DNA of 49,035 nucleotides from Nanobdellota archaeon. GTDB taxonomy: Archaea > Nanobdellota > Nanobdellia > Parvarchaeales > Parvarchaeaceae. Made by a program: the position numbers and the translations under genes. Below are positions 1,768-37,905 of this stretch, one piece after another. Within the stretch, counting starts at the first letter, position 1; each line of letters opens with the position of its first letter. The stretch spans positions 1 through 49,035 of the forward strand of contig JAKATQ010000001.1 of NCBI GenBank assembly GCA_021818665.1, in the 5' to 3' direction. A model generated the notes under the pieces. It was not told the origin of the DNA. It did no database searches and worked only from the letters and a program-made list of their open reading frames with translations.

Positions 1768-2016
1768 CTAACTTAAGTGAATGTAAACTTCGGTCATCTT
1801 TTTTGCTGTGGTCCATCCGACTATTTGTTTTAGAGACGATCTTAAGGGCGAGTTTTAAGGCCGCACATGATTTATTGATTAGTTGAGTGAGGGCAGGCCT
1901 TGTTCAAACTATAAGAATTCTAAGAACGCTTTTTTGTTTATGTCCATTATTTCTTAGCTCCACATAAGAACTTCGGCCCTGTTCTTAAAGATTCTCTCCC
2001 TTAAACCATCTTCCAT
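1768..2016 (-). pseudogene. Decayed tyrosine recombinase (integrase) remnant: C-terminal catalytic region, broken by stops and frameshifts.
   Basis: Reverse-strand reading gives ..LTQLINKSCAALKLALKIVSKTNSRMDHSKKMTEVYIHLS* with the stop at 1768-1770. This matches the integrase C-terminal pattern (L)GH-x5-T-x2-Y-x-H-x-S that carries the catalytic Tyr. Upstream, in shifted frames, are MEDGLRERIFKNRAEVLMWS* and ELRNNGHKQKSVLRILIV*. The fragment lies 60 nt from the 3' end of tRNA-Asn. Confidence 0.45.
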
Positions 2017-2075
2017 GCTTACACTTAATATTTAACTCCTTTTAAAACGATAAAAGATATCAACTAATCAAAGAC

Positions 2076-2147
2076 CGCCCAGGGAGAGACTCGAACTCTC
2101 AACCTAATGGTTAACAGCCATTCGCTCTGCCGTTGAGCTACCCGGGC
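2076..2147 (-). tRNA. tRNA-Asn (anticodon GTT), 72 nt, no encoded CCA.
   Basis: Manual fold of the reverse complement: GCCCGGG TA GCTC AACGGCA GAGC G AATGG CTGTTAA CCATT AGGTT GAGAG TTCGAGT CTCTC CCTGGGC G. All four stems pair and the T-loop is TTCGAGT. Confidence 0.9.
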
Positions 2148-3383
2148 TTACTCTCTGAGTATAGCTTTTTGAGCCATATATTCTTTGATTTTGCCCAATA
2201 TAAATTTATTAAAATCGTGGACATCGTATGGTTTGTCGTAAGCGGCGGATTCCTTGTAAACATACGCTTCTCTGTGCTGGTTCACGAACCTAGAAAAGTG
2301 CTCAATTCCAAGCCATGGATTCGGACCAACGACGCGCTTAGTCTTCGTCGCTGGGACGTTAGCGACTTCTAGGAACAGTTCTGCGTCGTGCTCCGAGAAC
2401 ACGACGTTCAAGTCGTAGACTTCTACACCGGCGTCTGACAGAGTTTTCAAAAGCCGCTCGGAGTTCTTGTTATATTTCGAGAGGAACTTCTCACGCGGAC
2501 CGGATATCCTCGTGACGTTCCTGAAAAGGCGGGTGCCGCGTAGTTTCGACCTGGAGATAATTGCTTTTTTGTCATCTTTCTTCAAGAAAAATGACATTTC
2601 GGGATGGAGGTGGAAAAATTTCACCGCGAATACGAACTTGGCGAAGTTGGTCATGTTCAAAGACGCGCAGACGTTCCGATTTGGGTTCGTCGGATCTACC
2701 AGCAGTATCGGCGAGCCGTCCTCCCCCAGCTCTTTTACCGCCCCATCCCTGTTCGAGTAAACCTTTTCTATGTCGATATACACGCACGGTCGCCATGCCA
2801 ACACGGCGTCAAAAAGCTGTTTTATGCCGCCATAGTTCAGGATCATCAGTTCAAGCGCATAGCCGGAGAAGCCGTGTATGTGCGTTTCGGCGCCGAAACA
2901 CCCGTTAGCCTTGCAGAATTGTTTCAGCGCTACGACGTCGCGCTTCATGCCGGCATCGAGTCTCCTGTTTATATAAGATGCGTGGAGCCTTGAAAAATCG
3001 ACAGAATTGGTGACCTCTTTGCGGTCCTTGAACCTTACCAGAGGCACTATCTCGACGTATACTCTCTGGATTTTGCCTCTGAAGTAGACGCGCGTGCCAT
3101 GCGCCGTATCAAAGCCATCTGGTATGAGCTTATGTAGCCCCAATGTTTCCTTTTCTGAACCGAAAACCACGAAAACGTCTATATCGGCATCATTCCTTAC
3201 CCACGTTCCCTTCGAGAAAGACCCGCCTAGCTCGACTTCTATGTCTAGCTTGTATTTTATCGCTTTGGCCCTTATGCCGGCAATGACGGATTCCGCTATC
3301 CGTTTCAGTTTGACGGCTTCGGCCCCGGATGGCAAGAAAGACTTATAAACACGTTCGATAATGTTATTAGTTTTGTCGAGCAT
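2148..3383 (-). CDS. cca: CCA-adding enzyme (archaeal class I tRNA nucleotidyltransferase).
   Basis: 411-aa ORF with an ATG start. The motif IEVELGGSFSKGTWVRNDADIDVFVVF matches the class I nucleotidyltransferase signature GS..RGT(W/F)...D.D(I/L)D.F. Length is typical. Confidence 0.85.
   Translation of the reverse strand: MLDKTNNIIERVYKSFLPSGAEAVKLKRIAESVIAGIRAKAIKYKLDIEVELGGSFSKGTWVRNDADIDVFVVFGSEKETLGLHKLIPDGFDTAHGTRVYFRGKIQRVYVEIVPLVRFKDRKEVTNSVDFSRLHASYINRRLDAGMKRDVVALKQFCKANGCFGAETHIHGFSGYALELMILNYGGIKQLFDAVLAWRPCVYIDIEKVYSNRDGAVKELGEDGSPILLVDPTNPNRNVCASLNMTNFAKFVFAVKFFHLHPEMSFFLKKDDKKAIISRSKLRGTRLFRNVTRISGPREKFLSKYNKNSERLLKTLSDAGVEVYDLNVVFSEHDAELFLEVANVPATKTKRVVGPNPWLGIEHFSRFVNQHREAYVYKESAAYDKPYDVHDFNKFILGKIKEYMAQKAILRE
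2175..2183 (-). promoter_or_regulatory. TATA-like element (GAATATATG on the minus strand), 28-36 nt upstream of the tRNA-Asn 5' end, inside the 3' end of the cca coding sequence.
   Basis: The sequence and spacing fit an archaeal TATA box at about -30. There is no independent evidence. Confidence 0.3.
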
Positions 3384-3410
3384 ATGTATGTTTAGCGAAC
3401 CATTATTTAT

Positions 3411-6110
3411 ATGGATATTCTGAGCCAGAAGTTGATGAAGATACTAGCCGAGCTTGGTTTTGATAATCTGACGGAAATACAGAAGCTTTCGATGCCTAGG
3501 ATAAAGAACGGAGAAAGCCTGGTCGTAGGAGCACCTACAGGTTACGGCAAGACCCTCGCAGCATTCCTTCCGCTGATAGAAAAGATTGATGGCACTAAGG
3601 ACGAGCTACAGCTATTGTATGTTACGCCGCTGCGCTCCTTAAACAGGGACATCTTCAAGAACATAATCTCTATCTGCAACAAAATGGGCGTAGAGCTCGA
3701 CATAAGGCACGGGGACACCTCAGCCTCGGAGCGAGCCAAGCAGGCGAGCATGCCGCCGCACTGCCTTATAACCACTCCCGAGACTCTGCAGTCGATGTTC
3801 TTAAGCAAGAGACTTGTGGAACACATGCGCAACATAAAGTACGTCATAGTGGACGAGATACAGAGCCTGATGGAGTCAAAGCGCGGGACCCAATTCAGCG
3901 TCGCACTGGAAAGGCTAAGGGAACTGGCCAAATTCCAGATAGTAGGACTCAGCGCGACTATCGCTGATTTCGAGGCGACAAAGCGCTTTGTAGGCTGCAG
4001 CGAATCCATAGAGTTCACTGGCGACAAAAAATACAACGTAAAGGTTATATATCCTCAGATAGAGCCCGAAGATGAGGGCGTCGCCTCGAAGGAAAACCTT
4101 AGCGATCTTGTGGCTAATTCGCTTAGATATATAAAGAACGAGATGCTTTCCGCCAGATCCACGATTCTTTTCACTAACACGCGGGAAACTGCCGAACTCC
4201 TCGGGTCGAGGCTGTCTAAATTCCTAAAACGCCAGAACATAGATGTCCACCATAGTTCGCTGTCTAAGGAAGTCAGGATGGAGATAGAGAATCGCTTCAA
4301 GATAGGCGGCATAGACCTCGTTATAGCCACCAGCTCGCTGGAACTCGGGATCGACATAGGAGACATAGATTTGGTCATACAATACATGTCGCCCCGTCAG
4401 GTCGTAAAGCTCATCCAGCGTGTCGGTCGTTCAAAGCACGTGGCGAGCGGGGTATCGGAGGGCCGCGTACTTACCATAAATCTGGACGACTACCTAGAGA
4501 GCGTAGCTGTCGATGAATGCCGCAAAGAGAACATGATAGAGGTCATTCCACTGCCAAAGCTTTCTCTGGACATACTCGCGCATCAGATAGCCGGCCTGCT
4601 CATAGACGGCGTAGGAAAACCGGCTAAGATGTTCGAGATAATAAGACGATCGTACGCGTATTCCGACCTGGATAAAAAGAAATTCGACGATACTTTGGAC
4701 TTCATGCTAAAACACTATCTCGTGAGATATTATGGTGAGGATCTTGTAAGGACAAGAAAGGGCCTGCTCTTCTACATAAACAACATCTCCTCCATCCCAA
4801 ATATAAAGACATATGTAGTTGTCGACAGCCAGCTGAACAAGAAGATAGGCGTACTAGACGAGAAATTCGTGGCGGAGAACGGTCGTGAAGGGAGCATGTT
4901 CATAATGCGCGGGGAGACATGGAAAATCATAAAGTTTGAGGGGCAGAAGATCAGCGTCGTAAGGGCGGCAAACTCGATTGGCGCGATACCTGCATGGGAA
5001 GGCGAGCTGATGCCGGTACACAGGTTTGTCGCTGAGCGTGCAGCCGCGCTAAGACACAAATATGTGGACCGTTTTTCTGTACTGCGTGAACAGCAGTCCG
5101 GGTTCGTGATCCCGGATGGGAAGACCATGCTGATGGAAAGAATGGAGGGTTTTGCAATAATCCATTCTCCTTTCGGGAACAAGATAAACGAGGGCATCGC
5201 GAAGGCGCTTTCCGCCAGGATATCGGTGATAGTCGGCGAGAGCGTCGTGAGCAAGGTCGATCCGTATCGAATAACCATCAAGACGCACCTTCCGCTCAAG
5301 GAGCTTAGGAAGTTGTTTACGTCAATGGAAGACCCAAGCGCCCTTATAAAAGACGTGATAAGGAGGACTTCACTTTACGAGTATCGTTTTTTAAACGTGG
5401 CGAAACGTTTCGGAGTCGTAAACAAATTCGCCGACTTCAGCAAGATGCATCTAAGGAGCCTTGTAGATATATACAAAGGTTCCATACTGGAAGAAGAAGT
5501 CTACAACGAGATATTCAGCGATAAGATAGACGTGGCGGGAGTAATGGACGTGATAGGAAAAATAAAGGCCGGCAGCATAGAATTAGTCCTTAATGAGGGT
5601 GCGCCGTCTCCTCTAGCGTACGAAGGATTTGAGAACTCGTACGGCGGTTCGATAGTAAGGCCGGAAGACGCGAAGAAGATGCTGCGGCAGCTCGTACTAG
5701 AAAGGCTGAGAAGCACCAGGATGTTCCTGCAGTGCCTTAACTGCGGCAATAAAGTCGGCGAATTCGATGCACAGAACGCATGTGACCTGAAATGCCAGAA
5801 ATGCGGTGCAAAGTACATAGGTTTTTTCAAATCCAAGTACAGCAAGGAATACTCGGACATAATCAAAAAGTCGTTCAAAAAGAAAAAACTTACGGCAGAC
5901 GAGGAGCGGATACTGGAAGGGCTAAAGCAAAGCGGCGCCCTGTACCTTGCGTACGGTGGCAAGGCATGCGTAGTCGGCGCTTCATACGGCATCGGCCCCC
6001 GCGTCGCAAGCCGCATCTTATCTACTTACAACAAAAGCGAGGAAGAGCTAGTGGACAAGATAATCGAAGCGGAAAAGAACTACATAGAGACCCGGGACTT
6101 CTGGAATTGA
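3411..6110 (+). CDS. Lhr-like ATP-dependent DExH-box helicase (superfamily 2).
   Basis: 899 aa. Motif I is GAPTGYGKT, motif II is VDEIQS and motif VI is QRVGRSKH. The long C-terminal region includes a CxxC...CxxC zinc ribbon (CLNCGNK...CQKCGAKY). Size and layout fit the archaeal Lhr core family. Confidence 0.7.
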   Translation: MDILSQKLMKILAELGFDNLTEIQKLSMPRIKNGESLVVGAPTGYGKTLAAFLPLIEKIDGTKDELQLLYVTPLRSLNRDIFKNIISICNKMGVELDIRHGDTSASERAKQASMPPHCLITTPETLQSMFLSKRLVEHMRNIKYVIVDEIQSLMESKRGTQFSVALERLRELAKFQIVGLSATIADFEATKRFVGCSESIEFTGDKKYNVKVIYPQIEPEDEGVASKENLSDLVANSLRYIKNEMLSARSTILFTNTRETAELLGSRLSKFLKRQNIDVHHSSLSKEVRMEIENRFKIGGIDLVIATSSLELGIDIGDIDLVIQYMSPRQVVKLIQRVGRSKHVASGVSEGRVLTINLDDYLESVAVDECRKENMIEVIPLPKLSLDILAHQIAGLLIDGVGKPAKMFEIIRRSYAYSDLDKKKFDDTLDFMLKHYLVRYYGEDLVRTRKGLLFYINNISSIPNIKTYVVVDSQLNKKIGVLDEKFVAENGREGSMFIMRGETWKIIKFEGQKISVVRAANSIGAIPAWEGELMPVHRFVAERAAALRHKYVDRFSVLREQQSGFVIPDGKTMLMERMEGFAIIHSPFGNKINEGIAKALSARISVIVGESVVSKVDPYRITIKTHLPLKELRKLFTSMEDPSALIKDVIRRTSLYEYRFLNVAKRFGVVNKFADFSKMHLRSLVDIYKGSILEEEVYNEIFSDKIDVAGVMDVIGKIKAGSIELVLNEGAPSPLAYEGFENSYGGSIVRPEDAKKMLRQLVLERLRSTRMFLQCLNCGNKVGEFDAQNACDLKCQKCGAKYIGFFKSKYSKEYSDIIKKSFKKKKLTADEERILEGLKQSGALYLAYGGKACVVGASYGIGPRVASRILSTYNKSEEELVDKIIEAEKNYIETRDFWN

Positions 6111-6113
6111 CGT

Positions 6114-6818
6114 TCAGATGTTCAGGTTCGAGATGTTATGGTCCTTCCCGTGCGAAACGCACACGAGGTCTGGATTAAGGTCTTTTACCTTCTTTATACT
6201 GCTGAGGAGCGAGATGTAGTCATCATAGAATATCGGCACTCTTAGCCCTTCGGGCACGCCTCTCAAAAGGTCCCCGACTATAACCGTGTTGGAATCTGGA
6301 AGATATATGGAGATGGAATCCGGTGTGTGGCCCGGCGTTTCGAGTATCTTCGCTTTTACGTGCATCTGTTCCGGGAACATCCCCTCTTTCAGGACCATGT
6401 CTGGTTTTACGAACTTCGGTCTCGCGAATGCGATCATTAATTTTATCATGCCTGCCATAAGTGCGGGTTTTATCCCCTTTACATTGCCCTGCTTTGGGAG
6501 CATCAGGCCACTAGCGCCATCTATATACTGTATCCCTTTTTCGTGTATAGCCAGATGCGCACCGGAAAGTCTCTGCATGTAATATGCGCCTCCGAAATGA
6601 TCTATGTGGGCATGGGTCAGCAGGATGTACTTTATGTCGGAGACTGATTTCCCGAGCGAGTTTATGTAGGCGATTATCGTTTTGTAGCTGTTCGGCATGC
6701 CGGCGTCCACAAGAAGAAAGCTGCCATCCGAAGCTTCTATTAAGAAAGCTTTTGTACGCCCAAGGTATATCTCGTGGAGTGAGGAATTTATCCTCATGCC
6801 GAGCGTGTTTGCTTCCAT
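6114..6818 (-). CDS. MBL-fold metallo-hydrolase.
   Basis: 234 aa. The HxHxDH motif is LTHAHIDHFGG, with later conserved His/Asp (TPGHTPDS, VSHG). Confidence 0.8.
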   Translation of the reverse strand: MEANTLGMRINSSLHEIYLGRTKAFLIEASDGSFLLVDAGMPNSYKTIIAYINSLGKSVSDIKYILLTHAHIDHFGGAYYMQRLSGAHLAIHEKGIQYIDGASGLMLPKQGNVKGIKPALMAGMIKLMIAFARPKFVKPDMVLKEGMFPEQMHVKAKILETPGHTPDSISIYLPDSNTVIVGDLLRGVPEGLRVPIFYDDYISLLSSIKKVKDLNPDLVCVSHGKDHNISNLNI

Positions 6819-6916
6819 AATAATCCTTATGAGCTTATTATTTAAATATTGGGCTCATCAGCTACCCTTGTCCTCATCGGTCGCCCTCAGAAGGTGTTCA
6901 CTTAATCATCGCCCAT

Positions 6917-7498
6917 TCATATTTTTGGCGGCGGAGTCCCGCCTGTCGAACTTATTTTATTTTGGTTATTGCCTAACTGGTACTGGAGAACGAAAAAGGC
7001 GGTGCTGCCTATCACAGAGCTGAGCTTCACGTTCATCGGGGCTAGTGGATTCGTGCTATAAAGTGTAGGGGTCGCTCCGTTAAGCCCAAGGTATAAGTAC
7101 CAGTAGGAATTTGTCGTTGTATTGTCACATATCTGCCCGGTGAACTGGCTGGAGTATATACACGTAAGCTGGCCGCCGGAAATGGAGGCGGACATGTTGT
7201 TAGCCCTTAGGATGTCATTGGTCAGGCCTCCTATCGTCGTGGCGTTAAGGGACGATATCGGGGTATATGCAACGCTACCGATGAGCGTAAGATTCTGCCC
7301 GGTGGACGATGAATTGCTCACGAGCCCGGTCGTATACAGTGATGAGGTTGGTTTCACGAGCGACTGGGGGATTATTATCTCGTAAGCTAGTTGCGTCGGA
7401 TTCCCCACGTTCATGCTAGCGAAACCGTACATAATAGAAACAACAAACACTATCCCGACCGCAGCAGCGAATATCTGTTTTAACCTTCTATTTACCAT
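6917..7498 (-). CDS. Hypothetical membrane-anchored secreted protein, N-glycosylation-sequon rich.
   Basis: 193 aa with an ATG start. The N-terminal hydrophobic anchor is IFAAAVGIVFVVSIMYGFA. The body is S/T/N-rich with a Cys pair (LTCIYSSQFTGQICDN). It may be distantly related to the family at 11449 and 45477. Confidence 0.5.
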   Translation of the reverse strand: MVNRRLKQIFAAAVGIVFVVSIMYGFASMNVGNPTQLAYEIIIPQSLVKPTSSLYTTGLVSNSSSTGQNLTLIGSVAYTPISSLNATTIGGLTNDILRANNMSASISGGQLTCIYSSQFTGQICDNTTTNSYWYLYLGLNGATPTLYSTNPLAPMNVKLSSVIGSTAFFVLQYQLGNNQNKISSTGGTPPPKI

Positions 7499-7510
7499 AA
7501 ACTCTTAGAG

Positions 7511-8830
7511 TCACTTCAAAAGCACGTAGCCTACCACAGAAACGGCTAGGATCACCACGAGCCCGACTAGGAACGCCGCGGGAGAGAGGGCTATGAGGAC
7601 CAATAATAGGATGCCGACGAACATACCGAACCCGGCTCTTGTGTAATCTCTGTTCTTAAGATAATGGTAGCCGTATCCTATAGAGAAAAAGACGAACGCC
7701 GCAACAAAGGACAGCGCAGCGAGTATGATTATAGGGATGTAAACGAATACAGCACCGGGTACTATGGTTATTATGTTTGCGAATATCGTTATGAGGACCA
7801 TCGGTACTGCGGCGGTTATAAGCAGCTTTAGGTTTTCATCGTTCTTGAGGAACGAAGGCATCAGGTGGTCCCTCGACATGTCATCTAGAGTCCTGTTTGC
7901 TGTATTTATGACGGCGAACGCCATAGTCAGTATGACTATTACTGATAGGCCCACTATTATGTCTTGGAGAAGGGAGCTGAACGAACCTGACAGTATATTG
8001 GCGGTGAATATCGATATCGGTGAGAACTGTATGGACTGCACCGTCACGCCCTGGCTATTGCCGTAGACTAGAAGCTGTATCAGTGAGAATATCACTATCG
8101 CGCTGAAGAGTACGTATATCAAAGCCTTCGCGACTTTGGTCCTGTCTGTCCCTTTATAGACTATCGCAGATCCTTCGAAGCCGCCGTACATCCACAGGAA
8201 AAGCACGAGTGCAAGCGAGAACGGCGCTATTATGTACGAAGGGAAGCTTACCGAGGCAGTTGACGTATTGAATCCGTGCTGCGTCACCGCTATCGTGCCG
8301 ACGACTATCAGGAGAACGACGAACAGTATCTTGAGCGCACCCGCGAAGTTCAGGCTCTTCCTAGTTTTCTGATAGAAGAAAAGCAACCACATTACGAAGA
8401 AAACTATGTCGACTAGGGCTATGGAAATGTATATGTTAAGACCAAAGAACTGGGATATCTCGCCCACTGACGCTATGCCGGCAGCCGTGGTCGTTATAAG
8501 GAAGGACACCAGTATTAGGAAGCCGAATATGAACGAATATTCTATGTCCGAAGTCGCTTTGAGAAAATTGTATGGGTCGTGGCTATGTGTGATGGATATA
8601 TCATATATAAGCATCGCTATCATGAGCGCTATGAAGCCCGCCGCTATCACGAGATAAACCGAGAACGGGCCGCTGTAGACTAGCGACATGAATATCGGGA
8701 GTATCAGTATGCCCAGTCCGATTATCCCTGCAAGTCCGTGAAGATAAAGTTCCGAAGTCGAATGCTCATTTCTCCCCGGGGTTGCCGGCCTTGCGACTCT
8801 GCGTGGTGCCGAACGCCGTCTTTTCTGCAT
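7511..8830 (-). CDS. APC-superfamily amino acid/polyamine permease-like transporter.
   Basis: 439 aa with roughly 12 hydrophobic segments throughout and a basic N-terminal tail. The family call rests on overall topology and composition only. Confidence 0.55.
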   Translation of the reverse strand: MQKRRRSAPRRVARPATPGRNEHSTSELYLHGLAGIIGLGILILPIFMSLVYSGPFSVYLVIAAGFIALMIAMLIYDISITHSHDPYNFLKATSDIEYSFIFGFLILVSFLITTTAAGIASVGEISQFFGLNIYISIALVDIVFFVMWLLFFYQKTRKSLNFAGALKILFVVLLIVVGTIAVTQHGFNTSTASVSFPSYIIAPFSLALVLFLWMYGGFEGSAIVYKGTDRTKVAKALIYVLFSAIVIFSLIQLLVYGNSQGVTVQSIQFSPISIFTANILSGSFSSLLQDIIVGLSVIVILTMAFAVINTANRTLDDMSRDHLMPSFLKNDENLKLLITAAVPMVLITIFANIITIVPGAVFVYIPIIILAALSFVAAFVFFSIGYGYHYLKNRDYTRAGFGMFVGILLLVLIALSPAAFLVGLVVILAVSVVGYVLLK

Positions 8831-8918
8831 AAGGGTTAAAGCACAATTTAGTATAAATAGCTGTATTTTTGAAGTCTTTTTACGGCTGATTAGGCGTATT
8901 TTTCTGGGTCTCTTGGGC

Positions 8919-10337
8919 TCAGACGTATTTACTTTCTTTCTTACCGGCGTCTGTAAGGCCTACGAATGACGCGTTTTTTTGGAATTCCTGCAGGTTCTCC
9001 GCGTTTAGATACGTCATAGCCGACCTTAGGCCGCCGATTAGGTTATTGATTATCTTCGTCGCGCTTCCCTTGTACGGTATCAGCGTCTCGGTGCCTTCGG
9101 GCGTGTACTCTTCTATGTTGACAAGGTCCTGCATCTTGGACGATTTGTCAGCGAAAGCGTTTATCGATGCCATCCCCCTGTAAAACTTGTAATTAACGTT
9201 CGATTTCGTGACTATGCTCCCCGGGCTCTCGTCGGTTCCTGCCAGAAGTCCTCCAATCATCACCGTACCAGCCCCGGCTGCTATGGCTTTTGACAGATCT
9301 GCGGACTTTATTATCCCGCCGTCGGCCATCACCGGTACCCCATGACCGGCGCATTCCATTATGGCACTCAGCTGCGGGTAGCCGACACCGGCTACGGGTC
9401 GCGTGAGGCACGCGCCTCCCGGCCCTATGCCTATTTTTACGCAGTCCGCACCGGCCTTCTTAAGGTTCACGACACCTTCTTTTGTTGCGACATTGCCGGC
9501 TATGACCTCCACGCTGAACTTAGCCTTCACCGTCTTTACAACTTCAGCGGTTTTCTCCAGATATCCGTTTGCAACGTCTACGACTATGAAATCTGCGCCG
9601 GCCTTCAGCAGCGCCCCGGTCCTTTCGAGATAATCGTGCCCTATGCCTATAGAGCCGCCGACTATCAGTCTGCCCTGCCTGTCCTTAGCAGAAGAGCCGT
9701 AGCTTTCAGCTATCGTTATGTCTTTTGACGTTATCATGCCACAAAGTGCGCCTTCCTTGTCCACGAGGGGCAGCTTTTCTATCTTGTTTAAGAGCAGTAT
9801 CTTCTTTGCATCCTCCGAGGACACGCCCTTCTTGGCAGTAACGACGTCCCTCGTCATCATTTCTCCGACGCTCTTGTTTTCATCCGTCTCGAACTGAAAG
9901 TCGCGTTTAGTTATTATCCCGACTACTTTCCTGCCACTCACAACTGGAAAGCTGGTCACTTTCTTCTCGTCTATCAGCTCCCTTAGCTGCTTTAGCGTAT
10001 AGTCTGGCGGGACTGAGTAGGGTTTGTCTATCACCACGTTCTGCTCACGCTTTACCTTGGTTATCTCGTTAGCCTCGTCCTCTATCGTGTTGAAGCGGTG
10101 AATCACGCCGACGCCACCCATCCTAGCGAGCGTTATCGCCATGACCGCCTCTGTCACCGTGTCCATGTTGGCACTCACTATAGGGAGTGGTATCTTCAGT
10201 TTGTCCGTTAGGTAAGTCGACGTATCTGCGTCTTTCCTTGAAGAGACTCTGGAAACTCGCGGCACTAGGAGCACGTCGTCGAAAGTCAGTAACTGCTTTA
10301 TCTCCATAAAAGCCAAATTCTTTACGTATTTAGGCAT
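8919..10337 (-). CDS. guaB: IMP dehydrogenase with tandem CBS domains.
   Basis: [13 protein letters not shown] lies near the N-terminus. A CBS pair is inserted in the barrel. The catalytic loop is [12 protein letters not shown], and [17 protein letters not shown] is present. The track ORF begins at a TTG (10409). I prefer the ATG at 10337; an alternative ATG is at 10307. Confidence 0.9.
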
Positions 10338-10457
10338 TAAATAGTTTGCCACGCGATGAGGCTGTTGCATAATTCGATTGCGGACAGCCTGCGATAAGCG
10401 ATAAATCAAACAAATGCTTCCTATTCTGCATTAGGAAACACAAAAAAGGAGGCATTT

Positions 10458-10727
10458 ATGAATAAGAAGACAGTGAAAGGATTTAAAGATTTAGTACAGA
10501 GAAAACTGCAGTTTGTTATAGATGAAATGAAGAAAGTCGTGGGAGACAGTGTGATAGAGCTGCTGCGGATGAACAAAGAAAAGAGGGGAAACCCCTTTGT
10601 CTATTCTGAGACGGAAATAGTCAATGCCAGTGCTTTTAGGTTCCTTATAAAACAGAGACTGCGGCAAACAAATGTCTTAGTGAAGAATCTTGCGCATGAA
10701 AGCGCTTATATTCGACTGCCGCTGTAA
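10458..10727 (+). mobile_element. Truncated IS (IS5-like) transposase, N-terminal fragment only (89 aa, no DDE domain).
   Basis: EKRGNPFVYSETEIVNASAFRFLIKQRLRQTNVLVKNL resembles the conserved N-terminal RGRP(F/K)xYSdxxIxxxxxxxxxFxLxYRQxEGFxxxL region of IS5-type transposases. The ORF stops before any catalytic domain. A strong AGGAGG lies 6 nt upstream of the ATG. Confidence 0.4.
10705..10712 (+). promoter_or_regulatory. TATA box candidate (CTTATATT) 29-36 nt upstream of tRNA-Ala.
   Basis: Position and sequence are very similar to the element upstream of tRNA-Ile (TTTATATAA). Confidence 0.4.
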
Positions 10728-10740
10728 AATAGTGATTCGT

Positions 10741-10827
10741 GGGCCGATGGCGCAATTGGCAACGCGCTCCCCTTGCAAGGGTTTCCTGGAACGGGAGAGA
10801 CTGAGGGTCCGAGCCCCTCTCGGTCCA
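10741..10827 (+). tRNA. tRNA-Ala (anticodon TGC) interrupted by a ~14-nt intron in the anticodon loop (about 10778-10791).
   Basis: Manual fold. The acceptor stem GGGCCGA/TCGGTCC contains the G3:U70 alanine identity pair and the discriminator is A. The D-arm is GCGC..GG..ACGC. The anticodon stem is CTCCC/GGGAG, with its strands separated by CTTGCA + 14 nt + C. The variable loop is AGACT and the T-arm is GAGGG TCCGAGC CCCTC. Length is 87 nt, or 73 nt after intron removal. A T-rich tract (TTTGTTTT) follows directly. Confidence 0.8.
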
Positions 10828-10834
10828 TTTGTTT

Positions 10835-11103
10835 TCACTTGGAGTTCTGCAGCGACATTATCAGAAGCCCGTACTTTTCCATCGTCTTTTCGGCCAGAAT
10901 TTTATGCTCTTTATATGTACCGCATATGGTCATCTTGCGCTTTATTAAACGCCTGTGTACTGCTTCATGCGCGGATTCCATTCCATCATAAATGCATAAC
11001 TCCGGGGTTTGCACCTAAAAACATCGAGTTTTATCTCGAACATCTTCTTTCCGCTGAGGACGGCATTAAAGTGTTTTGGCCACGCTTTTTTCTCTATCTG
11101 CAT
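10835..11103 (-). pseudogene. Frameshifted DUF3850/ASCH-like gene.
   Basis: My translation gives MQIEKKAWPKHFNAVLSGKKMFEIKLDVFRCKPRSYAFMMEWNPRMKQYTGV* (11103-10945). In the -1 frame it continues RLIKRKMTICGTYKEHKILAEKTMEKYGLLIMSLQNSK* and ends at 10835. Joined, the two parts follow the DUF3850 pattern (W P x x F x A V x x G x K x F E ... E W ... Y T G R ... G y v v l). One missing nucleotide after ACAGG at about 10952 explains the break. Confidence 0.5.
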
Positions 11104-11167
11104 GCCGTTCGGAAGCCGCAAATATATTTAAACAATGCGGAACCTTAAAACACGTGTTTAAAATTTT

Positions 11168-11440
11168 ATGTACATGCCCCTTTTTGGAAGAAGACTTAGG
11201 AGAATAACGGCGGAACTGATAGCTTCAGCGGTGATAGTGTCTTTCTTGGAAGAATTCGCACTGATATATTTTGGACTTTTATCAATAACCGGTCTACCTG
11301 ATTTTCTGGCCATAAGTGTCATACTATCAGTAATAGAACTTGTGCTGATGTTCATGATTGAAGAATTCCTGATAGCGGCAAAGCACGAAGTGAGGCGACG
11401 TATGAATAGACAGAGTTCCCTCAGCAGACACCTGAAGTGA
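11168..11440 (+). CDS. Hypothetical small membrane protein.
   Basis: 90-aa ORF with an ATG start, two hydrophobic segments and a basic C-terminal tail. No recognisable family. Confidence 0.3.
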   Translation: MYMPLFGRRLRRITAELIASAVIVSFLEEFALIYFGLLSITGLPDFLAISVILSVIELVLMFMIEEFLIAAKHEVRRRMNRQSSLSRHLK

Positions 11441-11448
11441 CCGGCGGC

Positions 11449-12327
11449 TCAGCTGCTTGAAAATACTCCATCGGGAGGCAGCGATGTTATGCTAGTCTGT
11501 GACGGTGTTTGTCCGATAGTGGCTGTAACAGAGTATGATATAGTCAGGTAGGTGCCGTTCTCGTCCCTAGTGGTAGATACCGATGCTTGTATCGGCAGTC
11601 CAAAAACATTGGAAAAGCAGATGGAACCTGATCCTGACCGGAATCTTATGTCGAAAAGTGAGCAGCTCTGCCCGTTTATTGTCTCTGTGCCCATGAAAGT
11701 CGTCGGTGTGCTGGAGTTTATAGAGATGTTGGTGATCCCAAAGGTAAGTGCAGGGAACATATTCGATCCGAGTGCTACACGACGATTGAAAGTCTGACCG
11801 GGAAGGTAGTTGCAATATTCGATGTTGATATTGGCACTGTGATTCGCGAAGGCATCGCCATTAGAACATGATATATCTCCAGTACCATTGAATATCGAAG
11901 TTGCGTGGAAGTTGCCTGGTATGGAAGAGAGGTTGGGTGGAGCACCCTCGACAGGTGAAAAACGGAAAAGTGCCGCTATCTCCGAAAACGGCACAGCCAG
12001 CGCATATCTAGACAAGTTGCCATATACTGCGAATGAGATACTGCTGTTAATTCTTTCATTTATTTGAGTCGGCGCGCCGGAGGAGTTCGATGCTGTGTCG
12101 TTGAGCCTTAGGCTGTCAGCGTAAGTAATATTTATTGCATTCTGCTGTATCGATAAATTCTGCGCTGTCTGCATGACCTGCTGCCCGTTGATGTCCGCTT
12201 GGAAAGCCGAGCTGACGATTTGCGTATTCTGGCCGTGCTGCAAGTTAAGCACACCGGAGCCGTATACTGCTATGATCGCTACCGCAACAGCTATTATCAC
12301 TATGGCGGCTAAAAGCTTAGACTCCAT
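11449..12327 (-). CDS. Membrane-anchored secreted protein, Cys-motif family (paralog of 45477..46409).
   Basis: I use the ATG at 12327 (MESKLLAAIVIIAVAVAIIAVYG..) because the track start at 12417 is a TTG. The N-terminal anchor is followed by an N/S/T-rich ectodomain with many NxS/T sequons. Motifs shared with 45477..46409 are NITY, CSL, ICFSN..G.P and a C-terminal PPxG. Confidence 0.6.
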   Translation of the reverse strand: MESKLLAAIVIIAVAVAIIAVYGSGVLNLQHGQNTQIVSSAFQADINGQQVMQTAQNLSIQQNAINITYADSLRLNDTASNSSGAPTQINERINSSISFAVYGNLSRYALAVPFSEIAALFRFSPVEGAPPNLSSIPGNFHATSIFNGTGDISCSNGDAFANHSANINIEYCNYLPGQTFNRRVALGSNMFPALTFGITNISINSSTPTTFMGTETINGQSCSLFDIRFRSGSGSICFSNVFGLPIQASVSTTRDENGTYLTISYSVTATIGQTPSQTSITSLPPDGVFSSS

Positions 12328-12490
12328 AATCAACGAATGCGATAATGATTTAAATAGGTATCTAAGCGGCCGGCGTCTCCGAAAGATTAGATAAAAGCTG
12401 CAACGGTTCGAATGCAAAGGCCATCATCTCCTTTTGTAGAATGTCAATAGTAAGATAAGAACCTATTAGGCATCTTGTAAAGACAGTACT

Positions 12491-32933: not shown

Positions 32934-34280
32934 TTAAATACTTATTAATTCCAAAGAATTCGCGGGTCCGTGTTCGACGGTGCTCCGTATGACGAGAGTC
33001 GTGCCCTTTATGCCGAACCTGCGTCCTGCACCATCGATGAACTTCCTTACGCCGGTGTCTAGGTTCTCAAAGTAAAAAGGTTCTACGCCTCTCGCTATGT
33101 TAAGTTTGTCCAGTACGTTTTTCTTGTCGGTGAGGGCGAATATCCTGGCGTTGGTGTGGTACCTAGATAAGTTTATCGGACCGGCCCCTCCCCTGGTCAG
33201 AAAGACGACGTTCTTTACGCCGGCACTCAATATTATGTACGCTGCAGCGCCTACGAGCGCCTCGTGCGGGCCGGATTCCCTATGCTCTTGCGGGTCGTCA
33301 AAGTACTGCGACTTCCACGTTATGCGTTTGAGCATCTCGAACGCACGCAGCGGGTAAGCGCCTATAGCCGTCTCTTCGGACAGCATCACCGCGTCAGATC
33401 CCTCGTAAACGGAATTGAACACGTCGTTCACCTCCGCCCTTGTAGGCATAACGTTCGTGGTCATGGATTCCAGCATCTGTGTGGCGGTTATCACAGGTCT
33501 CCTGAGCTGGTTCGAAGCACGTATAAGTTTTCTCTGCACCAATGGTACCTCCGCTATGTCTATGTTTAGCCCTAAGTCGCCTCTGGCTATCATTATCGCG
33601 TCAGATGCTATGGCTATCTCCTTGAAGTTTCTAAGTGCCTCACGCCTCTCTATCTTGGATACGAGAACGATGTCTTCACCGACTATGTCTCTGACTTTAG
33701 TCACGTCTTTTTTACGCGAAACGAAAGACAGGGCGAACGAAGTTATTCCTTTTTTAAGCCCGAAGCTTATCGCGGCCTTGTCATTCTTGGTCGGGTAGCT
33801 CCTCTCATAAAGCAGGCCCTGGGAATTTATACTCTGTCTATCGAGCAGTGTGCCGCTGTTCATCGCCCTAACGACAAGCTTCCCCTTCAGCTTGTCTATT
33901 ATCTTGAGTTCAAGTTTCCCATCCGCAAGCTTTATTCCGCCCTTCGACGGCAGTTCACTCAATATCTGCCGCGATACCGGTATCTGGCAATCTGGGCCGA
34001 GCGAGTAAGTCTCGCCCTCTAATAATTCTAGTTTGCCGCCGATGGGGTTCCCTGTCCTTATCTTTGGTCCCGGAAGGTCGAGAAGTATGGAAACGTGTTT
34101 GTTCAGCCTAGCGTTTATGTCGTTTATCATATCTATAAGTCTGCCGAAGTAATCCGGAGTATTATGAGAAAAATTCAGGCGGAATATGCTTGCGCCTCCC
34201 GCTGCGAATTTTTTTATCGTCTGTTCGGAGTCTGAGGCGGGCCCGAGTGTTATTACAGTCTTTATCTGGTAGTTATTCAT
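32934..34280 (-). CDS. pyk: Pyruvate kinase.
   Basis: 448 aa. KTVITLGPASDS...IFRLNFSHN, DLPGPKIRTG, MIARGDLG and VITATQMLESM. Confidence 0.9.
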   Translation of the reverse strand: MNNYQIKTVITLGPASDSEQTIKKFAAGGASIFRLNFSHNTPDYFGRLIDMINDINARLNKHVSILLDLPGPKIRTGNPIGGKLELLEGETYSLGPDCQIPVSRQILSELPSKGGIKLADGKLELKIIDKLKGKLVVRAMNSGTLLDRQSINSQGLLYERSYPTKNDKAAISFGLKKGITSFALSFVSRKKDVTKVRDIVGEDIVLVSKIERREALRNFKEIAIASDAIMIARGDLGLNIDIAEVPLVQRKLIRASNQLRRPVITATQMLESMTTNVMPTRAEVNDVFNSVYEGSDAVMLSEETAIGAYPLRAFEMLKRITWKSQYFDDPQEHRESGPHEALVGAAAYIILSAGVKNVVFLTRGGAGPINLSRYHTNARIFALTDKKNVLDKLNIARGVEPFYFENLDTGVRKFIDGAGRRFGIKGTTLVIRSTVEHGPANSLELISI

Positions 34281-34371
34281 AAGGAAGATAGGAAACGACT
34301 CGTTATATTAGTTTTGTTTATCGATATGGTCCTTAAGGCCGTTCAAGTGCGTATTACTCATCCATGAATAT

Positions 34372-36675
34372 CTACTGTATAGTTCCGATAGAAACCGAAG
34401 GCATGTCACCGAACGGCGGATAGTCTCTTATCCTAACATAATAGAGCGGCGGTGTTGTAAGCGAAGTTTTGTAGTTTAGTATGGCGCTGAACGGTATGTT
34501 TGTAGGCGTATATCCTGTACTGACACTTTTTACTTGTACGTAGTTGAAAAACAGAAGTACGTTCGAGCCTGTCGCTGCTATCCCGTACAGGTTGTTGCTC
34601 GCAGTGTTAGAAACGGCTATGGCGCTCGTATTTGTGTACGAAGAACTAGAAGTCGCATACTGCAGGTTGATAAAGCCGGGTTTTCCCAAGTATATCGTTT
34701 CTCCGTCCATCGTGGTGTTTATGTTGCCGAACTGAAAAGATTCCGGTGAGGTCGTCTTTGTAAACGGACCTGCGAACCATTCGAACACCGCTGGATAACT
34801 GTACGTGGCGGTTGTAAGTACGTTTACACCCTGCGATGCTGTCGTATTTGTGGTAAGATTATTGTTCACGGTATAAGCTCCTGTGGAGCCCGTTCCTTGG
34901 TTATCGACGGCCCACTGCGAGCCGAGCGACGTACCGGAGAAGTTGTAGTAAAACGTGAATACCTCCGCGCCGTCGTCATAAGCCCCGTATTTTGACGACC
35001 ATTCCGGCGCCTCTCCGGTGTTCTTTGGATTCATAACGTCGTAAGATGTAGGGAAAAACGCCATATATATGCCAAGACTGGAAAACGCAGGTATATTGCC
35101 TATATTGAGCCAGTAAACTGTCGATTTGCTTGCCGAGCCTGGGGCCAGAAAACCGATGTTTTGAGGGCTACCATCGTGCTCTCCTTTAATATCATTCGCA
35201 TTGCCGGTCAACGGCATCCATATCACGTTGTTTTCTCTCACTATCGGACCAGACGCCATGCCATTTGTGTATAACTGATTTATCTGTATAGATGAAAGAG
35301 CCGCGGTGTACACCTGCAAGTTGGTTATAGCTCCGTTTATGCCATTGAGAGTCTGGCCTCCCCCGGTCAAGTTACCGGTATTACCGCCCACGGCGAAATA
35401 GTGCGACGAGCTGACATTCTCTTCCTGTCCTGGAGACGTTGAGCCCACGTCATTCACGTATACGGTGAAGCTTCCTGAGCCCGGCTGCGGACCGCCGTTT
35501 GAAAGCACTGCTGTGACCATTGTCCATGTGTGCAGCGGCACGGTGATTGATGAACATCCGGAGTCTCCGAAATAGTGCGTTGTAGAGTTGAAGGTGGAAA
35601 CGCACAGATTGCCGCTCTGATTTACATAGAACATTAGGCTTACCTGCGGTGCCCCTTCAGAATATATCCAGCTGCCCTGCGGATTGTAAGAATTCAACAA
35701 TACCCAAGCGTTTATAGTGAAGTCGCTCTCGAAATCAAGTGGGGCCGTAGTAGAATTATAGATAATGCTGTTAACGCCGTTGAACGTAGCTATGTCACCG
35801 CCCTCAAGCCAGCTCTTTATTATGGTGTCATTCTGGTAGAAGAACTGCACATTAGAAAGATTTTTGGCTTCGTAGTGCGAAAATCTGGAGGAGTCTATAG
35901 TAAGCTGTTGCTGGAACCCGTTGCCCGTTTTCTGACTCTGACTATTTGTAAAGGTTATGGGCAGAAGGTTGGCGGGGGTGAAGCACAGCGAACTCTCAAG
36001 ATTGAACTTCTGGACGTACACTATAACCCTTAAGTTTGGATAATACTGGTTGATTGGTATCTGCCCCTCGGACGCTCCGGATGGCGATTCTATGCTGGTA
36101 GAGTATAGAAGAGTATTCGACTGCCCATACACCGATATTGTGAAATTCACCCCGTGTACAAGGCTGCCGAATTCGTTGTAGAACGAGACATTGTAGTCCA
36201 GGTAACCGTTAAAGAAAACATACGATGTGTTTATGAAAGATATAGGGAGTTGGAACTTCAGATAAGCTTCCTGTTGGCCGTTGACGTTGGCGAGGGTTAC
36301 GTATCCGGTGTACGTCCCACCGGTGACGGGTAGTTCACCTATTGTGTTCAGCGCGAGCGAAGAGGCCACCTGATTGTTCCCAGAGGACAGCACTATGAAA
36401 TTTCCACATATGTATGACAGATCCTGGTTTAGTTGCGGAAGCGAAAACGAAAATACGGATGTAGCACCGGTCTGCTGCGATGCTATGTAAGATATCGAAC
36501 TACCAAGGCTGGTTTCTGCAAGAGCGAGGTTTTGGTTTATGTCGGATGAATTGAACCCCGAAGAATAATAGTAAGTGATTGCAAGGAAGGCGCTAAACAA
36601 CAACAATGCTATCCCCATTATTATTAGATACTCTACGGCGGCCTGACCGCCGCTCCCGAAACGTAGAAACACCAT
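34372..36675 (-). CDS. Giant protein with a type IV pilin-like (class III) signal and DUF2341-like and LamG-like modules.
   Basis: I use the ATG at 36675 because the track start at 36705 is a TTG. The N-terminus MVFLRFGSGG|QAAVEYLIIMGIALLLFSAFLAITYYY has G at -1, Q at +1 and E at +5, followed by a hydrophobic helix. LLPITFTNSQSQKTGNGFQQQLTIDSS..NVQFFYQNDTIIKSWLEGG is DUF2341-like. FTINAWVLLNS..WIYSEG..SLMFYVNQSGNLCVS..HTWTMVTAVLSNG..FTVYVNDV..LQVYTAALSSIQINQLY is LamG/Laminin_G_3-like. STVYWLNIGNIPAFSSLGIYMAFFP is a second DUF2341-like stretch. Confidence 0.7.
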   Translation of the reverse strand: MVFLRFGSGGQAAVEYLIIMGIALLLFSAFLAITYYYSSGFNSSDINQNLALAETSLGSSISYIASQQTGATSVFSFSLPQLNQDLSYICGNFIVLSSGNNQVASSLALNTIGELPVTGGTYTGYVTLANVNGQQEAYLKFQLPISFINTSYVFFNGYLDYNVSFYNEFGSLVHGVNFTISVYGQSNTLLYSTSIESPSGASEGQIPINQYYPNLRVIVYVQKFNLESSLCFTPANLLPITFTNSQSQKTGNGFQQQLTIDSSRFSHYEAKNLSNVQFFYQNDTIIKSWLEGGDIATFNGVNSIIYNSTTAPLDFESDFTINAWVLLNSYNPQGSWIYSEGAPQVSLMFYVNQSGNLCVSTFNSTTHYFGDSGCSSITVPLHTWTMVTAVLSNGGPQPGSGSFTVYVNDVGSTSPGQEENVSSSHYFAVGGNTGNLTGGGQTLNGINGAITNLQVYTAALSSIQINQLYTNGMASGPIVRENNVIWMPLTGNANDIKGEHDGSPQNIGFLAPGSASKSTVYWLNIGNIPAFSSLGIYMAFFPTSYDVMNPKNTGEAPEWSSKYGAYDDGAEVFTFYYNFSGTSLGSQWAVDNQGTGSTGAYTVNNNLTTNTTASQGVNVLTTATYSYPAVFEWFAGPFTKTTSPESFQFGNINTTMDGETIYLGKPGFINLQYATSSSSYTNTSAIAVSNTASNNLYGIAATGSNVLLFFNYVQVKSVSTGYTPTNIPFSAILNYKTSLTTPPLYYVRIRDYPPFGDMPSVSIGTIQ

Positions 36676-36676
36676 A

Positions 36677-37276
36677 TCAGTTTTTTGCAAGAAATTTGTC
36701 GACAATGCCGCCTATCTTTTCGCTAACTATTGCAGCGTCCGCATCGCCATCAACGACCTTGAGGTGAAATTCTCTGGCCACGTGAAGATACATCTGCCGC
36801 ACCTTAGTTAGTCGCTCTCTGTCTGAGAAGAGCTGCAAGTTGTCTTCTTCTCCCGACAATCTATAAATTGACGTCTTTGCCGGGACATCTATAAGGATGC
36901 CAAGATCTGGCATTCTAAAGTTAAGGTTTATGTATCTCAACCATTTGTAATTTACTTTAGAAACGTAGCCGTAAGCTAGTGTCGAGAAGAGGTACCTGTC
37001 GCATATCACTATCTTACCTCTCGACACCGCCGGCTCTATAGTGTTTTCCAGATGGTGCGCCCTGTCGGCACAGAACAATAGTTGCATTGCTCTGGGACTA
37101 GTCATCCATTCTCCGTTAAGGGCCGCTTTCGAAAGACCACCCACTATGCTCGTGGTGGGCTCTTTTGTGAGCACGACAGATCTACCTGAAGTCCTAAGTC
37201 TGTTAGCGAGCATGACAGACTGCGTAGAGAGGCCGGAACCGTCTATCCCTTCGAGAACTATGAACTTTCCCTTCAT
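36677..37276 (-). CDS. Thymidylate kinase homolog whose Walker-A lysine is replaced by leucine.
   Basis: 199 aa. FIVLEGIDGSGLSTQ compares with the canonical EGxDGxGK(S/T)T. I checked the codon: CTC at about 37229-37231. The rest of the dTMP kinase scaffold is kept (TKEPT, LLFCADRAHH, VICDRYLFSTLAY). Confidence 0.7.
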   Translation of the reverse strand: MKGKFIVLEGIDGSGLSTQSVMLANRLRTSGRSVVLTKEPTTSIVGGLSKAALNGEWMTSPRAMQLLFCADRAHHLENTIEPAVSRGKIVICDRYLFSTLAYGYVSKVNYKWLRYINLNFRMPDLGILIDVPAKTSIYRLSGEEDNLQLFSDRERLTKVRQMYLHVAREFHLKVVDGDADAAIVSEKIGGIVDKFLAKN

Positions 37277-37905
37277 GCGGCACCGCCGATTAGCCTGCTT
37301 AGTTTTACTTGTATGTCTCGTGATACCGCATTCTTATCTCCAGAACCATCCACTACGAACCAGTTTTCGGAATAAAACTTGTCTTTCATAAGGGTGTCAT
37401 AGTTATGCCTTACCATAGTGAGAAGCTGCTGGTCTTTCTCAAACTTGTCTTCCGATTCTCCCGCCTCGGCTTTCTGCTTTCCCTTTCGCGCCATAGAAAC
37501 GCTTAGAGGTATATTTATGTAGAACACTGCTAATGGCTGCTCTAGACCGAGCATCCACGTCAGAGCTTTAGCCCTTTGATAATCAAAGCCGTTGGCGCAC
37601 TGGTATGCAATCGTGGAAAACAAATATCTGTCCATAAGTACAAACCCTTCATCAAGCGCTTTCCTGACTTTCCCTATATCCTTCACCATGTCGAGTATAT
37701 ACACGAGAAACTGCTCATCCACCGATAGTTGGATCTTGGAATAAAGGAAGGACTCTATTATCTTTCCGTATTGTGACGAATAATCCGGGTATGAAAATGA
37801 AGCGACCTTGAATCCCTTTCCCTCTAGCCACTCGCGCAAAAGTTTTGATTGCGTGGCTTTGCCGGCGCCGTCGGTACCTTCTAGTACAAGCAATTTTCCT
37901 GTCAT
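37273..37905 (-). CDS. tmk: Thymidylate kinase (canonical P-loop).
   Basis: I use the ATG at 37905 (MTGKLLVLEGTDGAGKATQ) because the track start at 37974 is a TTG inside the 3' end of the upstream gene. DRYLFSTIAYQ is present. Its stop overlaps the start of the downstream paralog (ATGA). Confidence 0.8.
   Translation of the reverse strand: MTGKLLVLEGTDGAGKATQSKLLREWLEGKGFKVASFSYPDYSSQYGKIIESFLYSKIQLSVDEQFLVYILDMVKDIGKVRKALDEGFVLMDRYLFSTIAYQCANGFDYQRAKALTWMLGLEQPLAVFYINIPLSVSMARKGKQKAEAGESEDKFEKDQQLLTMVRHNYDTLMKDKFYSENWFVVDGSGDKNAVSRDIQVKLSRLIGGAA

Follow-up and report, generated by a model that had tools for sequence, protein, structure and literature searches.

The locus described here raises the question of why the gene for a large pilin-like protein should lie between genes for thymidylate kinase and pyruvate kinase, and of what such a protein would do. 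It is located in a 49,035-nucleotide stretch of DNA from a Nanobdellota archaeon (contig JAKATQ010000001.1 of assembly GCA_021818665.1; hereafter, the window), where an open reading frame (ORF) at 34372–36675 on the minus strand, stop codon included, encodes a modular pilin-like surface protein of 767 amino acids (aa) that we call X. For DPANN archaea, the ARMAN lineages of acid mines among them, physical contact with a host is a necessity. To our knowledge, the molecules that make this contact are mostly unknown. On the basis of the data presented below, X is identified with moderate confidence as a modular minor type IV pilin or tip adhesin of a Parvarchaeales-like DPANN archaeon, and its gene offers an easily found candidate locus for host attachment, which is single-copy and conserved in position in 23 species-level genomes and encodes a predicted pilin stalk with three lectin-type modules.

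As a sequence-only reading of the window had noted, the ATG codon of X follows the stop codon of a thymidylate kinase gene (36677–36679) after a gap of 1 nt; in the ORF list, translation from an in-frame upstream TTG that overlaps tmk gives 777 aa instead of 767. An identical protein is present in public assemblies, where it is unnamed. The extracellular character of X is evident from its composition, with charged residues (D+E+K+R) accounting for 7.8% of the protein versus 24–31% in its cytoplasmic neighbours and S, T, N, Q and G together accounting for 45%, as expected for an exposed protein of an acidophile. The names of related genome assemblies, for their part, suggest acid-mine and hot-spring samples. 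The "dozens" of NxS/T sequons that the same reading had reported come down, on counting, to 16, compared with 14.7 expected from the composition, and an enrichment of sequons in X is ruled out.

Homologs and the prepilin-type N-terminus

A word-indexed search identified a single full-length ortholog, P0002 (760 aa, 35% identity to X), and a search of the same kind with the ortholog alignment was swamped by bacterial and archaeal multi-LamG proteins. The true orthologs came from an exhaustive HMMER search with a two-sequence profile, which returned 5460 relatives at E ≤ 1e-3 and 667 at E ≤ 1e-30, among them at least 10 collinear orthologs of 750–770 aa. Every named member of the cluster to which X belongs is a "hypothetical protein", and no NCBIfam model covers the ortholog group. 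When only aa 480–767 of X were used as the query, 337 proteins were found at E ≤ 0.01, including a family of ~490 aa from Micrarchaeia, 'Marsarchaeota' and Parvarchaeota. Many members of this family are annotated with PF10102 (DUF2341), and the N-termini that were read are canonical class III signals, such as QSAIEF or QSALEYMMTYGWAIL. The C-terminal jelly-roll module is common to all 337 proteins and to thousands of those in the HMMER search.

The N-terminus of X reads MVFLRFGSGG|QAAVEYLIIMGIALLLFSAFLAITYYY, with G10 at position −1, Q11 at +1 and E15 at +5 relative to the predicted cleavage site, followed by ~27 hydrophobic residues (mean hydropathy 2.27 over the 20 residues after the motif). 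The first 10 residues (36646–36675, minus strand) constitute a predicted leader peptide, with a prepilin-peptidase cut predicted after G10 from the alignment of ortholog motifs and from the Pfam family Class_IIIsignal (PF04021, formerly DUF361). Nearly all ortholog N-termini have the form [K/R][G/S/A/T]|QxSxEYLI, continued by ~20 hydrophobic residues, which is the DUF361 motif QxSxExxxL, and canonical class III N-termini, of the form QSA[LM]EY, are found in hundreds of relatives from these lineages. In the corresponding motif of X, QAAVEYLII, Q at +1 and E at +5 are kept, S at +3 is replaced by A and L at +9 by I. A six-frame pattern scan of the window recovered X as the only ORF with a class III-like motif at its N-terminus, the other match being deep inside a membrane protein. 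On the Class_IIIsignal profile, P0002 scores 23.0 bits (E = 7e-5), just below the 23.7-bit cut-off, and two of nine orthologs are matched at E ≤ 0.01. The prepilin peptidase EppA specifically processes QxSxE (DUF361) proteins (PMC2910488); in X, the leader would probably be removed between G10 and Q11.

Predicted fold and module order

To the conserved motif, structure prediction adds a fold. With an alignment that included the orthologs (second run, model 2), AlphaFold2 produced a model with a mean predicted local distance difference test score (pLDDT) of 78.4 and a predicted template-modelling score (pTM) of 0.65, which superseded a first run on a shallow alignment without orthologs (pLDDT 67.8, pTM 0.42; helix broken at residues 39–43). 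The N-terminal portion of the model is one continuous 57-residue helix (residues 9–65, pLDDT 80–97) packed on a β-sheet. The α1 helix of the mature protein would span aa 11–65 (36481–36645; this and all modules that follow are on the minus strand), with a hydrophobic half, Q11–Y37, and an amphipathic half, aa 38–65, and the sheet of the pilin module occupies aa 66–118 (36322–36480; predicted strands 72–79, 88–90, 93–98, 101–106 and 110–116; pLDDT ~94–97). In the model, helix 9–65 and sheet 72–116 together are the "lollipop" fold of type IV pilins. The prepilin-type start that had been recognized from the letters of X is borne out in this way by the orthologs and by the predicted structure, in which a pilin helix is followed by β-sandwich modules. 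The first of these, an Ig-like spacer at aa 119–235 (35971–36321; strands between residues 120 and 232, pLDDT 82–97), has no Pfam match.

The sequence-only reading had further named LamG and DUF2341 domains in X, on which Pfam itself (E ≤ 1) finds neither Laminin_G_3 (PF13385) nor DUF2341, the sole match being to Class_IIIsignal at E = 0.61; the Pfam check suggested with that reading fails on X alone. Both assignments hold at the level of family and structure only. Laminin_G_3 is matched in seven of nine orthologs (best E = 3.8e-22; P0002, E = 3e-17), at positions that map to aa ~299–466 of X, and a nine-sequence profile of the family matched LamG/pentraxin chains in PDB at positions 283–470 (E = 2.5e-8). 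The same profile found nothing in PDB for the pilin, DUF2341 or C-terminal parts, and a single-sequence search of PDB sequences with X gave no match. A Pfam match to DUF2341 was obtained in one of the nine orthologs. Scores above the 23.4-bit PF10102 cut-off (25.9–38.4 bits) were found for the ortholog P0140 and for the paralogs P0012, P0023, P0025, P0039 and P0048. The contiguous DUF2341 matches of the paralogs that have no LamG map to two separate parts of X, aa 273–293 and ~515–590, and the P0140 match (profile positions 25–83, 25.9 bits) maps to the second of these. The ~490-aa paralogs, when aligned with X, are without exactly the LamG region. The existence of paralogs without LamG, together with the two pieces of DUF2341 that flank the Laminin_G_3 matches, indicates that LamG is nested in a loop of DUF2341, and it is the splitting of the domain by ~225 residues that accounts for the missing single-domain PF10102 match on X. 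The order DUF2341, LamG, DUF2341 that the sequence-only reading had proposed is therefore retained, its nucleotides 35791–35973 corresponding to aa 235–295 and its nucleotides 35260–35763 to aa 305–472.

The N-terminal piece of the split DUF2341 β-sandwich comprises aa 236–293 (35797–35970; PITFTNSQ..FQQ..NVQFFYQNDTIIKSWLEGG), with the paralog matches beginning at residue 273; it is 60% identical to the ortholog, and F254, Q255, Q256, W289 and E291 are nearly invariant. The nested LamG jelly-roll, of the Laminin_G_3 type, takes up aa 294–482 (~190 aa; 35230–35796), with support from the ortholog Pfam matches, the profile and Foldseek. It is followed by a return linker (aa 483–514; 35134–35229) of low pLDDT with the motif W-x-P-L-x-G-N-A-N-D, which is typical of LamG repeat junctions and common to the LamG proteins of Micrarchaeia. 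The C-terminal piece of DUF2341, aa 515–590 (34906–35133; TVYWLNIGNIPA..., NTGEAPEWSSKYGAYDDGAEVF), is better conserved than any other stretch across the family. Last comes a predicted ConA-like β-jelly-roll at aa 591–767 (34375–34905; β-strands 600–763), which ends in the conserved sequence Y-V-R-I-R-D-Y-P-P-x-G-x-M-P.

A Foldseek comparison of the X model with PDB retrieved laminin LG4-5, neurexin LNS pairs, pentraxins and the lectin domains of sialidases, with E-values down to 7e-10. For the LamG module, the matches were to LG domains and pentraxins (E from 7e-10 to 1e-7; target template-modelling scores of up to 0.69, for single-domain targets), and for the C-terminal jelly-roll the alignments were to LG4-5 two-domain pairs and to the putative carbohydrate-binding proteins 4dqa and 4jqt. 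The minor pilin PilC of Streptococcus sanguinis (7oa7, 7oa8) also matched the model (E = 1.4e-6). Sequence, homology and structure prediction together show the predicted order of X as a pilin module, an Ig-like spacer, a DUF2341 domain with a nested LamG and a terminal ConA-like jelly-roll.

Relationship to type IV pili

A connection to pili comes from relatives of X. The metagenome-assembled genome that carries the closest ortholog, P0002 (isolate clean1593), has a second contig (L033, DAHXLI010000053.1) with a compact pilus-type locus at 727–12208 on the plus strand, which encodes a secreted protein of 814 aa, a T2SSE ATPase (750 aa; Pfam, E = 2.9e-18), a protein with 11 predicted transmembrane (TM) segments, a DUF6899 protein and a 960-aa paralog of X. 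The gene for the 11-TM protein (705 aa) overlaps that of the ATPase, and its product is a weak match to T2SSF (E = 0.018). The paralog has a class III N-terminus, KSQSTLEYMMTYGW, a DUF2341 match of 33 bits and a Laminin_G_3 domain. A Micrarchaeaceae genome (L086) likewise has genes for a T2SSE ATPase (E = 1.2e-33) and a 7-TM protein, together with a four-gene operon whose products begin like pilins and include the family module.

These arrangements have precedents in the literature. The large DUF2341 proteins encoded in the methanococcal-type pilus loci of archaea are predicted tip adhesins (PMC4858521), and a screen of Methanococcus maripaludis for defects in transformation yielded insertions in the DUF2341 gene of its epd locus (PMC10133366). 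Mia14, a relative of ARMAN-2, has two type IV pilus systems and one FlaK-like prepilin peptidase, and its LamG proteins are expanded in number, with some of their genes beside pilus loci (PMC5498576). In bacteria, the combination of a pilin with PF13385 is among the most frequent architectures of modular pilins (PMC8179133).

On this basis, a possible course of events can be outlined for X. The preprotein would enter the membrane via its N-terminal hydrophobic helix, and a prepilin peptidase of the EppA/FlaK type would cut off the 10-residue leader at G10|Q11. A T2SSE-family ATPase and a polytopic platform protein, both presumably encoded elsewhere in the genome, would then extract the helix and pack it into the core of a filament. 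As the mature protein has a mass of ~80 kDa, it would probably be accommodated only at the pilus tip or as a rare minor subunit; the placement of S. sanguinis PilC at the tip was derived from structure and modelling (PMC9934059). The lectin-type modules of the DUF2341/LamG/ConA-like head would serve to bind glycans, for which the host cell surface is the most plausible source. The proposed incorporation into a pilus and the adhesin role both draw on the paralogs in T2SSE loci and on analogy with PilC and with the archaeal DUF2341 adhesins.

Conservation of the locus and evolution of the modules

The position of X among housekeeping genes, to which the sequence-only reading had drawn attention, is conserved. 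A member of the X family is encoded directly after the second tmk gene in 23 species-representative, Parvarchaeales-like DPANN genomes (labelled at NCBI as Candidatus Parvarchaeota, Nanoarchaeota, Woesearchaeota or Parvarchaeum sp.), and pyk follows wherever the contig continues; in one of these genomes (L009), X overlaps tmk by 4 nt. The wider region, with genes for MetRS, acetyl-CoA synthetase, ArgRS, SUI1 and PolD, is largely syntenic as well, so that the fixed position of X is best attributed to vertical descent within a region that rearranges slowly and is no proof of functional coupling. At five of the tmk-X-pyk loci (L021, L026, L028, L029 and L031), pyk begins 3–5.5 kb after the start of X. 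These longer slots seem to hold extra modules of X or an inserted second gene, and the slot seems to tolerate the gain of modules.

Compared with the nearest genome, X is 35% identical, versus 50–76% for most of the flanking proteins, the exceptions being ArgRS (33%) and MetRS (46%). The divergence is unevenly distributed along the protein: identity to the ortholog is 56% in the signal and helix, 44–60% in the DUF2341 pieces and 53% in the C-terminal tail, as against 16–28% in the core of LamG and 10–24% in the hypervariable interior of the last jelly-roll. A conserved scaffold (signal, DUF2341 and tail) combined with a rapidly diverging LamG and jelly-roll interior is the pattern expected of a surface that determines specificity. 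The LamG of X (35230–35796) shares 45% identity with the last LamG of P0003, a 1148-aa multi-LamG protein encoded inside a cluster of LamG genes (L088:10001–13447), but only 31% with that of its own ortholog. The closer resemblance to P0003 suggests that LamG cassettes are exchanged between adhesin genes, and that of X appears to have been exchanged with paralogous LamG genes. The parts of X that probably bind ligands evolve rapidly and seem to be swapped as cassettes. If the proposed role is confirmed, the locus would provide a fixed genomic address for comparative and metatranscriptomic studies of host specificity.

Alternative explanations

Several observations weigh against the placement of X in a pilus. 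In agreement with the sequence-only reading, no pilus ATPase, platform protein or prepilin peptidase was found within the 49 kb window, and the unannotated ORFs of the window are neither polytopic nor peptidase-like. The Walker-A pattern of T2SSE was present in only two of the 89 loci examined (78 of them from the family scan), both confirmed by Pfam, in a pattern scan that is crude and misses divergent ATPases. The homologs P0014 and P0024 are likewise encoded singly amid housekeeping genes. The Class_IIIsignal match on X itself covers aa 10–28 with 10.6 bits (E = 0.61), below the 23.7-bit cut-off, and X is a mild outlier of the ortholog motif because of its G at −2 and A at +3. Orthologs have K or R at −2, as do 102 of 116 related N-termini, and the nearest basic residue in the leader of X is R5, at −6. 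The inter-domain geometry of the model is uncertain, given its pTM of 0.65 and linkers below pLDDT 50, the low-confidence linkers being 490–513 and 550–566. Finally, class III signals are found on archaeal proteins that form no filament, for example substrate-binding proteins (PMC2910488).

The explanation that profits most from these points, and that we regard as possible though not probable, is that X is a membrane-anchored or pseudopilus-type surface lectin, for which the class III signal, processed or not, is only a device for anchoring or export. X would then be displayed on the cell envelope like the Sulfolobus substrate-binding proteins with class III signals (the "bindosome") and would still bind glycans or the host. 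In its favour are the location of X, P0014 and P0024 outside pilus loci and the leader of X, which is atypical at −2; many FlaFind-positive archaeal proteins are not components of filaments (PMC2910488). The combination of DUF2341 and a ConA-like module is also known from C-terminally anchored proteins with ordinary signal peptides. An example is P0318 of Sulfolobaceae (1184 aa), in which the two modules stand behind an ordinary signal peptide and before long repeats and a C-terminal membrane anchor, a layout that shows their use on proteins without a pilin-type N-terminus. Against a mere anchor speak the residues Q+1, S+3 and E+5, which are strictly conserved (X itself having A at +3), and the long α1 helix with its amphipathic second half lying on a β-sheet, traits of assembling pilins that simple anchors do not share. 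Paralogs encoded directly beside pilus ATPase and platform genes point in the same direction.

The assignment of X as a minor pilin or tip adhesin can also be carried much further. X might be the primary, constitutive host-recognition device of a whole acidophilic DPANN order, that is, a core-genome pilus-tip adhesin within a nucleotide-salvage/glycolysis cluster, whose host range would be altered by swaps of the LamG cassette and diversification of the terminal jelly-roll. We consider this extended version unlikely; if it were true, attachment specificity could be read and predicted from one syntenic locus in metagenome-assembled genomes.

The ConA-like superfamily includes glucanases, and X could in principle be an extracellular glycan-processing enzyme (a ConA-like glucanase or lyase) that is tethered by its helix and feeds on, or remodels, polysaccharides of the host or the matrix. 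Foldseek matches that include 4jqt, a putative glycosyl hydrolase, the O-glycanase 6t2o and sialidase lectin domains would be compatible with such an activity. The best structural matches, on the other hand, are non-catalytic LG, pentraxin and lectin domains, and no glycoside hydrolase or lyase family was found by Pfam or NCBIfam in any of the nine orthologs. Nor was a conserved pair of acidic catalytic residues found: the invariant residues are in DUF2341 and in the YPPxGxMP tail, and the interiors of the jelly-rolls are the least conserved parts. With neither conserved catalytic residues nor a match to a hydrolase family, we judge an enzymatic function to be quite improbable.

It is more improbable still that the resemblance to pilins is due to chance and that X is an ordinary type II membrane protein or an S-layer-associated structural protein kept near tmk and pyk for reasons unrelated to pili, as the non-significant Pfam result on X alone and the wholly housekeeping context might suggest, since the motif is kept across orthologs that are only ~35% identical overall, canonical N-termini recur in hundreds of relatives from the same lineages, and the predicted structure shows a pilin fold.

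Comparison with known systems

A close counterpart of X in predicted layout is S. sanguinis PilC (PDB 7OA7/7OA8; PMC9934059), which has a class III signal with E at +5, a short pilin module, an Ig-like module and a lectin of the ConA/LamG type; in both proteins, the bulk of these modules would fit only at the tip of a filament. PilC is bacterial and encoded in a pil locus, and it has one lectin module with proven binding of host glycans (PMC9934059). X, by contrast, is archaeal, has the DUF361-type motif QxSxE, lies outside a pilus locus and contains three β-sandwich/jelly-roll modules, one nested in another. There is no detectable sequence homology between the two proteins outside the LamG fold. 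The predicted architecture of X has the defining trait of modular pilins, namely that the pilin module is joined to others with putative separate functions.

Among archaeal proteins, those encoded in pilus loci with DUF2341 (arCOG03508/MJ1470 type; MMJJ_08210 of M. maripaludis) resemble X in carrying this domain within a large secreted protein, and paralogs of X are found in such loci. They differ from X in that the DUF2341 of X is interrupted by LamG and scores below the PF10102 threshold, and X is outside pilus loci. The class III proteins with a single LamG (~280–320 aa), the multi-LamG proteins of Micrarchaeia and the LamG expansion of Mia14 (PMC5498576) come from the same lineages as X and share its LamG subtype, the junction W-W-P-L-x-G-N-A-N-D-Y-S-G and canonical pilin-like N-termini. 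They differ from X in being without the scaffold of DUF2341 and C-terminal jelly-roll and without the Ig-like spacer, and in their location in variable LamG clusters. The ~490-aa class III/DUF2341/ConA-like family (P0011–P0079), which matches the C-terminal half of X with E-values down to 1e-69, shares with it a pilin-type N-terminus, a β module, DUF2341, the sequence GEAPQLSxxYGxYDDGANVF and a jelly-roll ending in RAYPPNGVMP; its members are without the LamG insertion, have a shorter and different N-terminal β module and are encoded at other genomic positions.

The only NCBIfam match of X was to the LamG region of TafC (NF052521), at aa 288–472 (E = 5e-6). TafC, the tip adhesin of the Tat-fimbriae of Haloarcula hispanica, is an archaeal filament-tip protein with a laminin-G-like domain (PMC11821415) and is similar to X in that domain, but it has a twin-arginine signal and a donor-strand β-sandwich and no pilin helix (PMC11821415). 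Membership of X in the TafC family was rejected: the match scored 25.8 bits, compared with a cut-off of 410, and was confined to profile positions 187–363, the LamG part, and there is no RR motif at the N-terminus of X, which thus has neither the signal type nor the N-terminal domain of TafC.

In view of these systems, the novelty that the sequence-only reading had attached to X was overstated. Fusions of a pilin with PF13385 are common in bacteria (PMC8179133), DUF2341 tip adhesins have already been proposed (PMC4858521) and LamG expansions at pilus loci have been described in Micrarchaeota (PMC5498576). No new kind of machine is involved, both the components and the notion of a type IV pilus tipped with a lectin being already known, and X is unusual chiefly in its fixed location amid housekeeping genes. 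What is new is an unnamed ortholog group in which LamG is nested in DUF2341 on a pilin-type stalk with an Ig-like spacer, its fixed address between tmk and pyk across a DPANN order, and the signs of LamG cassette exchange. If confirmed, X would extend the concept of the "modular pilin", until now based on experiments in bacteria, to an archaeal protein in which one domain is nested in another.

Neighbouring genes and other open reading frames

X is part of a run of minus-strand genes for SUI1, the PolD small subunit, the two thymidylate kinases, X, pyruvate kinase, L3, L4, L23 and so on to SecY, and the remainder of the window also consists of housekeeping genes. Directly upstream, the tandem thymidylate kinase genes (Pfam Thymidylate_kin) occupy 36677–37905 on the minus strand (tmk1, 37273–37905; tmk2, 36677–37276). 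Their products are paralogs with ~30% identity to each other, and the pair is kept upstream of X in all the syntenic genomes. The pyruvate kinase gene (Pfam PK; 32934–34280, minus strand) lies downstream of X after a 91-nt spacer (34281–34371), which contains a TATA-like sequence, TAATATAA, at 34303–34310 on the minus strand, ~22 nt upstream of the pyk ATG. As a putative pyk promoter, TAATATAA would be consistent with pyk having a nearly leaderless transcript of its own and with a tmk unit that ends in X, and X is probably co-transcribed with tmk. Being fixed between tmk and pyk and probably transcribed with the former, X would be expressed constitutively.

For two further ORFs of the window, at 6917–7498 and 11449–12417 on the minus strand (193 and 322 aa), Pfam gives no match; each has just one hydrophobic segment, located at the N-terminus, and they may encode additional envelope proteins. 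The G+C-rich first kilobase of the window was considered as a possible RNA gene, a candidate that was rejected as there is no Rfam match; it is the end of a second surface-type ORF (2–1391, minus strand), which extends past the start of the window and encodes at least 463 aa with an N-terminal membrane anchor and internal repeats of ~150 aa rich in S, T and N. The sequence ISRATITQTLSSSPASPFAYSGSPPAIT occurs twice in this ORF, the presence of which accounts for both the G+C content of the first kilobase (58%) and its strong GC skew.

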